This document shows positions 13,864 to 51,146 of a stretch of DNA of 64,000 bases, one piece after another. Position 1 is the stretch's first letter. Every line of letters begins with the position of its first letter. The translations under genes were made by a program, and so were the position numbers. Source of the DNA: Candidatus Nealsonbacteria bacterium (GTDB taxonomy: Bacteria > Patescibacteriota > Minisyncoccia > Minisyncoccales > DAOVPY01); contig DAOVPY010000002.1 of assembly GCA_030628945.1 (NCBI GenBank), positions 87,831 through 151,830 on the forward strand, in the 5' to 3' direction. The notes beneath the pieces are model-generated. The model was not told the DNA's origin, did no database searches, and saw only the letters and a list, made by a program, of their open reading frames with translations.

Positions 13864-13876
13864 TTGATTTTAATTG

Positions 13877-13949
13877 TGGCGCAGGGCAGGAATTGAACCT
13901 ACCTATTCTGGCTTATGAGGCCAGCGTGATACCGTCTCACTCCCGCGCC
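13877..13949 (-). tRNA. tRNA-Met (anticodon CAT; could be lysidine-type Ile2)
   Basis: Cloverleaf read by eye: D stem GTGA/TCAC, anticodon arm CTGGC-CTCATAA-GCCAG, T arm GTAGG-TTCAATT-CCTGC. The acceptor can be drawn with 8 bp. No encoded CCA. Confidence 0.8.
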
Positions 13950-22695: not shown

Positions 22696-23274
22696 TTACC
22701 GCTTTGCCCACTGGGGCGCGCGACGGGCTCGTTTGAGGCCGAATTTTTTTCTCTCTCTCATCCTTGAATCACGGGTTAAGTACCCCGCTTTTCTCAAACG
22801 TTTTTGGAAATCCGGATTAAAAAGAATGAGAATTCGGGCTGTTCCGTGCCTCACTGCTTCTGCCTGACCCTGCACTCCTCCTCCTCTTACCTTAACTAAA
22901 ACCCTAAACCTATCAAGGCATTTCATTTTTCTTAAAGAAGCGCTGGCAGTTTGTTGAAGTTCTTGAGTGGGAAAATACTCTTGATAAGGCTTATTATTTA
23001 TTAAAAATTCATTTTCTCCCCTAGTCCATAGCTGCACCCGGGCCACAGCGGTCTTTCTTCGACCGATTGCTCCTAAATACCGGGCCGGCTTTTTCACAAG
23101 TTTTTTTACTCCGTTAAATTGCTCGCCCTTGGGGCGAGCACCCCCGCTTTTAGCGGGGGATTTAACAGGGTGAACCTTTTTAGAAACCGCCTTCTTGGAC
23201 ACTGCTTTTTTCTTTAATTTTTTAGCATCCTTTGGCTGTTTTTTTAATTTGGCTGTTTTTTTAGTTATTGACAT
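22696..23274 (-). CDS. rpsI: 30S ribosomal protein S9 with ~60-aa Lys-rich N-terminal extension
   Basis: GRRKTAVARV...; C-terminal RRAPQWAKR. Confidence 0.95.
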   Translation of the reverse strand: MSITKKTAKLKKQPKDAKKLKKKAVSKKAVSKKVHPVKSPAKSGGARPKGEQFNGVKKLVKKPARYLGAIGRRKTAVARVQLWTRGENEFLINNKPYQEYFPTQELQQTASASLRKMKCLDRFRVLVKVRGGGVQGQAEAVRHGTARILILFNPDFQKRLRKAGYLTRDSRMRERKKFGLKRARRAPQWAKR

Positions 23275-26573: not shown

Positions 26574-26620
26574 AAAACTTTAAAATTTTTAATTTTTAAT
26601 TTTTAATTTTTAAAATATTA

Positions 26621-26780
26621 AAGCGAGGAATGTGGTTTCAGGGACACTCAAGGCTGCGAGCGGGCATGGTTCCGAGCGAACGGAGCGAGCGAGGAGAGCG
26701 AGTAATTTATTCTGCCTTGCGTGAGCGAGCCAGCCACGCTGGGGCTGGCGAGCGACCCCTGAAACCAGCATTCCGAGCGT
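26621..26780. repeat. GGAATGTGGTTT-type structured intergenic element, copy A (GC-rich core)
   Basis: Terminal inverted repeats gaggaatgtggtttcaggg / ccctgaaaccagcattccgagcg. Abuts the rpmJ stop. Confidence 0.7.
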
Positions 26781-32591: not shown

Positions 32592-32718
32592 GAGGAATGT
32601 GGTTTCAGGGACATATTGTAAGCGAGGCGAATGAAAATTTTTAGTATGGGGTGGTTGGGTGGGTCTAATTACTAAAAATTTTCATTTGCCGAGCGATATA
32701 AAACCAGCATTCCGAATG
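32592..32718. repeat. GGAATGTGGTTT-type structured intergenic element, copy B
   Basis: About 90% identical by eye to copy C. Nested inverted repeats ggaatgtggttt/aaaccagcattcc and aatgaaaatttttagta/tactaaaaattttcatt. Confidence 0.8.
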
Positions 32719-44585: not shown

Positions 44586-44771
44586 GCTCTAAATTTCTAA
44601 TTTCTAATATCTAATTGACCTAATCAAATCCCAAATCCCAATTTCTAATGTCTAACTTTTTTGGTCATTGGTTATTGGACATTGGGTATTGATTAGACAT
44701 TAGGTTAATTAGGAATTAGGAATTTTTAACTTTTTTGTTGTAGTTTTGGCTTTTGTGTTTTGTGTTTTGTA

Positions 44772-45275
44772 TTATCTTGGTAAAACTTCAATCTTCTGCC
44801 CCTCTTTGACCTTCACAATGGCTTTTTTGTATCCCTTTTTCCAGCCTGTAATTCTTCCCAACCGCCTATGACGTCTATGAACGTTGATAATTCTAACGCC
44901 AATAACGTCTACATTATAAAGACCTTCAACTGCTTTTTTGACTTCAATCTTGTTGGCTCTGGGCAAAATCTTAAAAGTATATTGGTTCTTCGCGACTAAA
45001 TCCGTTGCTTTTTCGGAAACATGGGGCGATTTTAAAACTCGATAAGCCGTACCCGAAATTTTTGCGCGCGGTTTTGAAACTTTCGGCTTTACCCTGTTAA
45101 ATTGCTTTGCGCCAGCTTCGCTGGATTTAACAGGGTGAATTTCTTTTCTCTCTTCAACCGCCTTTTCTTTTTTTATTTTTCTTGGTTTTTCCTCAACTCT
45201 AATCTTAGGGGCTTTTTTCTCCTCTTTTGGCTTTTCCTCTTTCTTCTTTTTTCTGAAAAAATCAAACAAACTCAT
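44772..45275 (-). CDS. rplW: 50S ribosomal protein L23 with ~75-aa Lys/Glu-rich N-terminal extension
   Basis: VLKSPHVSEKATDLVAKNQYTFKI...KIEVKKAVEGLYNV. Confidence 0.9.
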   Translation of the reverse strand: MSLFDFFRKKKKEEKPKEEKKAPKIRVEEKPRKIKKEKAVEERKEIHPVKSSEAGAKQFNRVKPKVSKPRAKISGTAYRVLKSPHVSEKATDLVAKNQYTFKILPRANKIEVKKAVEGLYNVDVIGVRIINVHRRHRRLGRITGWKKGYKKAIVKVKEGQKIEVLPR

Positions 45276-48621: not shown

Positions 48622-48716
48622 AATAAATTATGAAACTTGAAACTTGAAACTTGAAACTTAATTAAAAGGTTACAGGTTTCAGGCTGCAGATTTCAAAAAT
48701 TTGTTAATATGTTTTT

Positions 48717-48745: not shown

Positions 48746-48841
48746 CCTTTATATTTATAATATAATTATACTAAATTATAGTTAAATGGGCAAGCCCTGT
48801 TAAATGCCACTTCGCGGCAATTTTGCGTGTAGCAAAATTAT

Positions 48842-49105
48842 TTAACAAGGCAAGTCCTCTATCTTCAATGGTTCGTTCTTTAGTCCTTCTGGCAACTGCT
48901 CATTATCTTGGTCTTTTTTAATTTCCCCGAGATTATTAGATTTATCCAAAATTTTTTTATAGTCCTCAAATTTGAGCACTGCCAACTCTGGCTTTCCGTT
49001 TTCCACAATAATAAGTCTGCCTTTATCTTTCTCTATTAAATTCTTGATTTCATCTAATTCCATGAATTTTAATTTTACCTTAGCAAACTCCTTCCAAAAA
49101 ATCAA
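48842..49105 (-). CDS. Phd/YefM-like antitoxin-domain protein (no adjacent toxin)
   Basis: GRLIIVENGKPELAVLKFEDYKKIL resembles the Phd/YefM N-domain. The last codons and the stop come from a palindromic element. Confidence 0.4.
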   Translation of the reverse strand: MIFWKEFAKVKLKFMELDEIKNLIEKDKGRLIIVENGKPELAVLKFEDYKKILDKSNNLGEIKKDQDNEQLPEGLKNEPLKIEDLPC

Positions 49106-51018: not shown

Positions 51019-51146
51019 CGAAGAATGTGGTTTTTGGGATAAATTGTAAGCGAGGCTAATGAAAATTTTTAGTATGGGGTGGTCTGGGTGGGTCTATTAC
51101 TAAAAATTTTCATTTGCCGAGCGATATAAAACCATATTCCGAGCGA
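51019..51146. repeat. GGAATGTGGTTT-type structured intergenic element, copy C
   Basis: Abuts the fusA stop codon; near-identical to copy B. Confidence 0.8.

Follow-up and report, generated by a model that had tools for sequence, protein, structure and literature searches.

The gene rplW of a Candidatus Nealsonbacteria bacterium (positions 44772-45275, minus strand), which encodes the ribosomal protein L23 (167 residues, Pfam PF00276 at residues 80-163), carries a short palindromic element in its N-terminal coding part. The gene lies in a stretch of 64,000 nucleotides (assembly GCA_030628945.1, contig DAOVPY010000002.1, positions 87,831 to 151,830 of the forward strand) that was analysed as a whole and is called the window here; all coordinates are those of the window unless a locus is named.

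The L23 element and its sister copies in the window

An initial annotation of the window had described the element as a palindrome at 45092-45136 with perfect 11-bp terminal inverted repeats around a single interior hairpin. The letters that it gave (ccctgttaaat-tgctttgcg-ccagc-ttc-gctgg-atttaacaggg) are found in the window at 45092-45135 (44 nt), the end thus lying one base earlier, and the inner 11 nt of the arms are perfectly complementary. The pairing in fact extends to 15 nt (TTTACCCTGTTAAAT at 45088-45102 with ATTTAACAGGGTGAA at 45125-45139; 14/15 paired, one T.G), and the interior contains two hairpins, not one. The whole copy occupies 45088-45139 (52 nt: TTTAC-CCTGTTAAAT, a 22-nt interior, ATTTAACAGG-GTGAA) and is oriented along the coding strand, that is, the minus strand (covariance model 51.8 bits, E=9e-12; inverted repeat). 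On the plus strand it reads as a left arm, TTTAC-CCTGTTAAAT (45088-45102), whose inner 13 nt (TAC...) were apparently inserted and whose outer TT would belong to the target, as suggested by the net insert lengths and by the end of family conservation at position -5 (see below); a first mini-hairpin, TGC-TTT-GCG (45103-45111; DNA fold), with a 3-bp stem that includes a T.G pair on this strand; a second mini-hairpin, CCAGC-TTC-GCTGG (45112-45124; folding), with a 5-bp stem and a 3-nt loop; and a right arm, ATTTAACAGG-GTGAA (45125-45139), delimited by its sequence, by family conservation and by the inverted repeat. Mini-hairpins of the first type (TGC-NNN-GCA) are also present in the related copies L301, L359, L352, L256 and L363, and a hairpin identical to the second is found in the L23 gene of another species (L363). 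The element encodes L23 residues 47-62, HPVKSSEAGAKQFNRV, in the translated context (I)HPVKSSEAGAKQFNRV(K). These residues belong to the N-terminal extension, where the initial annotation had placed them; the extension is Lys/Glu-rich, and the residues lie outside the Pfam domain. Short AT-rich tandem repeats, TTAGGAA and TTTTGTG, are located 3' of rplW (44700-44770).

Three copies are present in the window, of which the initial annotation had recognised the two in rplW and rpsI and missed the one near tuf. Firstly, the pattern GTTAAAT-N10-40-ATTTAAC matches three times, against 0.04 matches expected. Secondly, a covariance model built from foreign copies only retrieves exactly three sites in the 64 kb (E<=1e-11; the next best hit scores 16.8 bits): the copy in rplW, one in rpsI and one upstream of tuf. 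Thirdly, these copies have folding z-scores of -5 to -7, as RNA or as DNA, and all three fold into a three-way junction in either nucleic acid and on either strand, the arms forming the closing stem and the interior forming two abutting hairpins. The rpsI copy (23105-23174, minus strand; covariance model 57 bits, host gene by Pfam) lies in the open reading frame (ORF) of ribosomal protein S9 (22696-23274). Its left arm, CTCCGTTAAAT, has two base differences, its interior consists of hairpins of 21 and 19 nt, and it encodes S9 residues 35-56, HPVKSPAKSGGARPKGEQFNGV. It was correctly noted as having the same frame (HPVK...FNGV) and orientation as the rplW copy, and the ORFs of both proteins run uninterrupted through the element. 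The third copy (48791-48854, plus strand; covariance model 59 bits) lies between an 87-residue ORF (48842-49105) and tuf, upstream of tuf, and provides the stop codon of the 87-residue ORF. According to the orientation of the covariance model, the rplW and rpsI copies point along the coding strand, while the interior of the tuf-proximal copy is in the opposite orientation. Four tandem GAAACTT repeats are found directly upstream of the tuf start (48632-48660).

The link between S9 and L23 had been attributed to a shared DNA element and not to shared ancestry, and the nucleotide comparison of rpsI with rplW proposed as a check bears this out: the two genes have in common TTCACCCTGTTAAATCC (17 nt, E=1.4e-5) and AGCAATTTAAC (11 nt), both within the element, and outside of it nothing but A-rich low-complexity words. 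A peptide motif, inherited or selected in both proteins, would account for the same frame and the similar peptide (HPVKS...QFN[RG]V) of the two segments. However, this DNA is also found in non-genic positions and on either strand, homologues of the two proteins lack the segment, and the peptide is itself derived from the palindrome, PVK being the reverse complement of FNR. We therefore give this explanation practically no weight, and the same holds for a chance palindrome, given three copies for 0.04 expected.

A dispersed family with a conserved shape

We scanned one genome per GTDB species with the 20-nt pattern CCTGTTAAAT-N18-48-ATTTAACAGG and obtained at least 119 loci, compared with about 17 expected by chance (an estimate for 596 Gb at uniform base composition). 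The lineages among the genome matches listed are many Patescibacteria, Desulfobacterales/Thermodesulfobacteriota (Desulfobacterota), Omnitrophota and WOR-3/Stahlbacteria, with scattered others. A 24-nt pattern gave at least 120 loci in metagenomes. A collection of 2.9 million viral contigs contained a single convincing copy, and the viral matches to a loose pattern were due to chance only. The copies, found on either strand, in genes as well as in intergenic DNA, measure 46-85 nt and have the arms (TT)YAC-CCTGTTAAAT ... ATTTAACAGG-GTR(AA), which enclose 20-48 nt. One copy lies in the 16S-23S spacer of a complete Nealsonbacteria genome, where some 30 nt separate it from the 5' end of the downstream 23S rRNA (L186, 1199-1252). 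Neither the window nor 18 related loci contained any Rfam family at the gathering threshold, the best score below it (mir-1991, 23.8 bits for a threshold of 66) being meaningless; literature searches with the arm sequence returned unrelated primers and shRNAs only, and keyword searches on palindromic elements or transposable elements of the miniature inverted-repeat type (MITEs) of the Candidate Phyla Radiation (CPR) returned no relevant description. The family thus appears to be undescribed so far.

What the copies share, apart from their arms, is a shape. In a sample of 251 non-redundant elements picked by their arms alone, 129 interiors (51%) consist of exactly two abutting hairpins in which all bases outside the loops are paired, an arrangement found in 1 of 5020 shuffled sequences (0.02%). 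The interior stem pairs are Watson-Crick in 97% of cases and G.T in 2.8%, and 286 of 415 interior loops have 3 nt. The interior sequences are almost wholly different between copies, even within one genome. We also obtained a high covariation count (alignment A5), which is not used as independent evidence since the sequences were chosen by their predicted fold. Beyond the searched core, conservation covers five positions (T, T, Y, A, C) and ends at -5. The third outer position is asymmetric: among the 96 copies with a pyrimidine and a purine there, 75 have T...G, read on the other strand as C...A, so that a T.G wobble on the top strand corresponds to a C.A mismatch on the bottom strand. The arms themselves exist in compensated variants (GTTAAGT/ACTTAAC, GTTAGAT/ATCTAAC, GTGAAAT/ATTTCAC). 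Arm variants with their own peptides, GTTAGA/TCTAAC encoding HPVR...LSNGV and GTGAAAT/ATTTCAC encoding SPCEI...FHRV, were located in the host ORF of L301 (N-terminal residues 7-31), in protein P0131 and at L141 (2455-2495), which suggests sister families and a wider superfamily.

Longer (110-140 nt), tandem and nested versions of the element also occur. Solitary arms, considered as possible ends of a long autonomous element, proved to belong to such larger copies (110-140 nt) or to diverged ones. In Desulfobacterales, the element is nested in a multi-copy repeat of about 230 bp that has inverted ends of its own (…CTTCGTAAAAAGTCCA / GGACTTTTTACGAA…; alignment A2, loci L137, L160, L154, L201, L217, L159, L147, L179 and L220), that is, the T-shaped element is carried along by a larger MITE-like repeat. 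For the WOR-3 copies, an array of CRISPR-like or tandem type was considered; neither Tandem Repeats Finder nor a repeat search gave one, and these copies are a hairpin-less variant in a composite repeat.

We then compared loci with homologous 40-nt flanks. In 50 pairs the interior has the same orientation, and in 11 pairs it is inverted while arms and flanks are unchanged (for example L230/L239, L167/L341 and, within one genome, L168/L170). The interior therefore inverts between fixed arms, in a flip/flop manner. Because interiors flip, their orientation is uncoupled from the T/G asymmetry of the ends. Inversion is also seen at a site that is occupied in several CPR lineages, a conserved spacer whose downstream gene was read as rpmJ (L36) only in L178: the copies there differ by compensatory substitutions in both hairpins, and the interior of L285 is inverted relative to that of L128.

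These rpmJ-spacer copies are what one would expect of a structured RNA or DNA signal that selection maintains in the host and that might stabilise mRNA, serve as a processing site or act in replication or recombination; the location of many copies in or beside ribosomal protein operons and the very stable fold would fit as well. Other properties of the family speak against such a signal. The folding energy of the inner hairpins shows no strand bias, and G.U pairs make up only 2.8% of the stem pairs, contrary to what an RNA function would lead one to expect. Copies are found in both orientations relative to genes, and copies in ORFs show the H (CAC) polarity about as often as the Y (TAC) polarity. 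Moreover, copies are present in catalytic domains of unrelated enzymes, no Rfam family corresponds to them, and nearly all homologues of L23 and S9 lack the copy. We consider a host signal to be quite unlikely.

Insertion into genes and the target site

We examined whether the homologues of the host proteins carry the segment. The best 120 L23 homologues, nearly all with similar Lys-rich extensions, lack it in 118 cases, the two carriers being an identical protein and P0051; the nearest named homologues belong to Nealsonbacteria and Wildermuthbacteria, which would make the source a CPR bacterium of the Parcubacteria type. The closest homologue has a gap exactly at the element, and the three nearest homologues all align globally with a better score once residues 47-62 are removed. 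In P0051, which belongs to another species, an element that hardly differs (CCAGCGAAGCTGG-TGCGGAGCA) occupies L23 residues 12-27 and not 47-62, and was therefore probably inserted separately. Likewise, the S9 segment is found in 0 of the 150 best cluster representatives. As judged from these alignments, the segment is an insertion relative to the homologues. The L23 copy is most likely a tolerated insertion of 48 nt that lengthened a flexible extension by 16 residues, and a function of its own is improbable. The extensions of six other L23 proteins (P0004, P0008, P0038, P0043, P0102 and P0115) contain other recurrent short peptides, for instance (S)FAKAT(A/V)GKE, which may be footprints of further palindromic element families.

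The family has entered other protein genes as well. With translations read from open frames alone, 37 of 249 non-redundant copies lie wholly within open frames that span 150 codons or more, among them 26 in the xPVK...FNRV frame. This preference is explained by stop codons that the arms carry in other frames: the right arm has them in two of three frames (ATT TAA; GGG TGA or TAA) and the left arm in one (TGT TAA). That only about 15% of the copies lie in long ORFs, despite dense coding, would fit purifying selection against most genic insertions. The hosts confirmed by Pfam are KsgA/RsmA, a class-V aminotransferase (IscS-like), phosphoglycerate kinase (PGK), MurD, the beta subunit of pyruvate:ferredoxin oxidoreductase (PFOR-beta) and topoisomerase I (TopA), and in several of them the insert lies within the conserved domain. 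A peptide-profile search yielded 73 candidates, mostly short spurious ORFs, together with in-frame copies in a four-helix-bundle protein and a LigA-like N-terminus (both identified by eye).

The net length of the insert could be reconstructed at five sites. PGK has a 20-residue gap relative to the Thermotoga maritima enzyme (1vpe) for a 34-nt interior; KsgA differs from the Bacillus subtilis protein (6ifs) by 20 residues, a flanking Arg-Val being apparently duplicated; in the prepilin motif KGFTLIE of L351, 54 nt are interposed for a 28-nt interior; L23 gained 16 residues for a 22-nt interior; and S9, read likewise, gained 22 residues for a 40-nt interior. The net gain at all five sites exceeds the interior by 26 nt, corresponding to 13-nt arms (YAC-CCTGTTAAAT); the outer TT/AA of the conserved 15-nt arms is therefore best read as a target preference, and the 11-nt arms of the initial annotation fall short both of what is conserved and of what was apparently inserted. 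The junctions lie between a 5' TT and a 3' AA or TA (GTT^AAA three times, ATT^AAG and GTT^TAC). None of the five sites requires a target duplication, and the rplW copy itself has none. In L351 (310-380), the order is a native GGGTTTAC, the core element and a second GTTTAC, with the prepilin signature split in this way. Read in one frame, the arm gives FTLLN, a peptide similar to FTLIE; the element may naturally target pilin leaders, or its arms may mimic them.

The segment in rplW is thus likely to be a copy of a dispersed, non-coding, selfish and non-autonomous hairpin element that was inserted in the L23 gene and is now translated through, and the family as a whole is probably mobile. Several points weigh against this reading. 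Since the scans demanded perfect arms, the conservation of the arms within positions -1 to -10 or -12 is partly a product of construction. No filled and empty alleles were found as pairs at the DNA level, so that mobility is inferred from protein-level gaps and from dispersal, and the length of the insert cannot be fixed in the IscS-like protein and PFOR-beta, where the sites lie in variable loops. The enzyme is also missing from what was searched: clustering of the ORFs near the copies gave no transposase, only housekeeping families recurring; about 1.7 Mb of flanking sequence contained no autonomous element with the same ends; and by eye, with no hidden Markov model scan made, no transposase was recognised among the ORFs of the window, including those of the REP-associated tyrosine transposase (RAYT) type. 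The retention across species of copies upstream of rpmJ, with compensatory changes, could reflect a host function and not selfishness. Finally, about 6% of the copies have flanking direct repeats of 6-8 bp, which is above expectation, and these could be target duplications made by a DDE enzyme.

The last point would be accounted for by a classical DDE-type MITE, in which a transposase encoded at another place binds the 15-nt arms, in duplex form, as terminal inverted repeats and the target is duplicated upon insertion. Terminal inverted repeats, many copies and the lack of coding capacity agree with such an element, as do the direct repeats of at least 6 bp that flank 15 copies (8 distinct sequences), with 0.8 expected. 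However, a recurrent 8-mer, ATCTGCGT, and related words make up many of these repeats and are also seen beside the element as tandem 9-mers. They would seem to have been repeats already before the element split them, an explanation that holds for many cases and not for all. The five reconstructable sites are explained without duplication. In addition, duplex arms only 22-48 bp apart would be hard to bring together in view of the stiffness of DNA, the hairpin shape of the interior is kept although a MITE does not require it, and no parent insertion sequence (IS) was found near the copies or in the 1.7 Mb of flanks. A DDE-type MITE is in our opinion unlikely, and the inserted, selfish hairpin element remains the preferred reading.

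Putative movement, other repeats and known systems

Several known systems work on folded single strands, namely the HUH/Y1 'peel and paste' transposons, REP/RAYT, integron attC and parvoviral terminal resolution. A mechanism of this kind would fit the properties of the family, that is, insertion at a short site without duplication, dependence on shape and not on interior sequence, arms as close as 22-48 bp, the T.G wobble and flip/flop of the interior. Either DNA strand, or an RNA copy, would fold into a T- or Y-shaped three-way junction; an enzyme supplied in trans would recognise the arm duplex of the folded single strand and move the element. Such hairpin-dependent, single-strand movement of the HUH/Y1-like type seems likelier than DDE cut-and-paste, and the active strand may be marked by the T.G wobble conserved at the foot of the stem (C.A on the opposite strand). 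Only one frame, xPVK...FNRV, would be open through both arms, and coding copies would survive only in this frame and in tolerant places, such as the Lys-rich and probably disordered N-terminal extensions of L23 and S9. It is conceivable, but we hold it only tentatively, that the family represents a new class of mobile DNA and the smallest known: a T-shaped hairpin of 46-85 nt that moves as a single strand, inserts at TT^AA without duplication, undergoes parvovirus-like flip/flop, has spread across phyla and remodels essential proteins, including ribosomal ones, in CPR bacteria, by means of an enzyme that is perhaps a HUH nickase or a structure-specific recombinase.

If the segment is such an insertion, selfish DNA inside protein genes, which has so far characterised Rickettsia, is found in the CPR and in further phyla as well, and the element is one origin of the insertions and extensions that make ribosomal and housekeeping proteins of the CPR unusual. 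For annotation, it would explain many short spurious ORFs (xPVK...FNRV and LLN...LTG peptides) and odd alignment gaps in essential genes from metagenomes. The strict shape with a loose interior, the conserved arms, the flip/flop and the TT^AA insertion together offer a handle for finding the hairpin-recognising enzyme.

Other repeats are present in the window. Between rpmJ and rpsM, in a spacer that is otherwise AT-rich, a GC-rich nested palindrome of about 150 nt (26600-26780; arms GGTTTCAGGG / CCCTGAAACC with internal GC-rich hairpins) has the look of a further palindromic insert, distinct from the element, in the same operon; AAAATT-type repeats are found upstream of rpsM (26600-26640). Two nearly identical 95-nt repeats (32610-32705 and 51038-51133) each include a hairpin, whose arms of 21 nt (GGCKAATGAAAATTTTTAGTA / TACTAAAAATTTTCATTTGCC) enclose a G-rich loop; they make up another repeat family, or possibly a small RNA or terminator. 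The first part of the window (1-22300) is a block of minus-strand ORFs which, judged by eye, resembles a phage region (its large ORFs recall portal, terminase, capsid and ParB-like proteins). This block carries a tRNA-Met (13876-13949), ends just before rpsI and contains none of the three copies of the element.

We compared the element with known systems, beginning with integron attC sites and Xer/dif recombination sites. An attC site is likewise an imperfect palindrome that acts as a folded single strand, has GTTRRRY/RYYYAAC-like boxes and can carry a variable, sometimes branched tip; GTTAAAT fits GTTRRRY, ATTTAAC fits RYYYAAC, and TGTTAAAT fits 8 nt of the E. coli XerD arm, with what we take to be the consensus of the attC core and inverse core and of the XerD arm. 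However, every copy reads GTTAAAT...ATTTAAC on both strands, an order (GTTRRRY...RYYYAAC) that is the reverse of RYYYAAC...GTTRRRY, so that the stem is flipped relative to the loop. In the window, cassette arrays and an integrase context are absent, the copies being 22 kb and 3.7 kb apart and two of them located in ribosomal protein genes. As for dif, only TGTTAAAT resembles the XerD arm: there is no conserved 11-6-11 layout, the centre is not conserved, and conservation stops at -5, where the XerC arm would be. An attC or Xer/dif-like site is therefore very improbable.

The T-shaped hairpin at the ends of the linear single-stranded genome of adeno-associated virus (AAV), its inverted terminal repeat (ITR), has about 125-145 nt, a Rep-binding GAGC repeat and a nick site, and exists in flip and flop forms. 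The element resembles such parvoviral ITRs in that two small abutting palindromes, with loops of 3 nt, lie within an outer one, in that the interior flips and flops, and in that the sequences of the interior arms vary freely while the shape is kept. In contrast, it is internal to bacterial chromosomes and far smaller, it has neither Rep-binding nor nick motifs, and no Rep gene was noticed in its vicinity. In shape and flip/flop, parvoviral ITRs are its closest counterpart, a likeness of form, and possibly of mechanism, and not of membership.

Bacterial MITEs (Correia, ERIC, RUP, BOX and others) occasionally fuse in frame with host ORFs (PMC10969869). The element has in common with them terminal inverted repeats (15 nt, 14/15 paired and conserved in the family), a non-autonomous nature and multiple copies; it differs in being much smaller than the MITEs described and in having an interior constrained in shape, and no consistent target duplication was seen across the copies and no parent IS in about 1.7 Mb of flanks. 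Repetitive extragenic palindromic (REP) elements, BIMEs and REPINs, which depend on RAYT, and the derivatives of IS200/IS605 are also short, folded palindromes in high copy number that insert without duplication by a short specific sequence and occur in tandem clusters. By contrast, REPs are species-specific, essentially extragenic and made of a single hairpin, whereas the arms of the element are conserved across phyla, its hairpins are two and many copies are intragenic. REP elements are reported to have a GTAG or CGTC tag (PMC3733652); the foot of the element (TTYAC-CCTG / CAGG-GTRAA) has neither, and we do not count it among the REPs.

In behaviour, the closest likeness is with the Rickettsia palindromic elements (RPEs), short palindromes found in frame in unrelated housekeeping genes, to which they add a peptide (PMC10969869). 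Like RPEs, the element has no coding capacity of its own, is dispersed in reduced genomes of host-dependent bacteria and, by its open frames, would be read through in frame. RPEs are, however, about 100-150 bp long, fall into ten sequence families and are confined to Rickettsia, whereas the element measures 46-85 bp (52 nt in rplW, a third of the RPE size), occurs in several phyla, has a T-shaped interior of two hairpins and flips, and is thereby set apart from RPEs by description. A behaviour similar to that of RPEs is the best reading, which places the element among the small palindromic selfish repeats, with a real chance that its mechanism is new.

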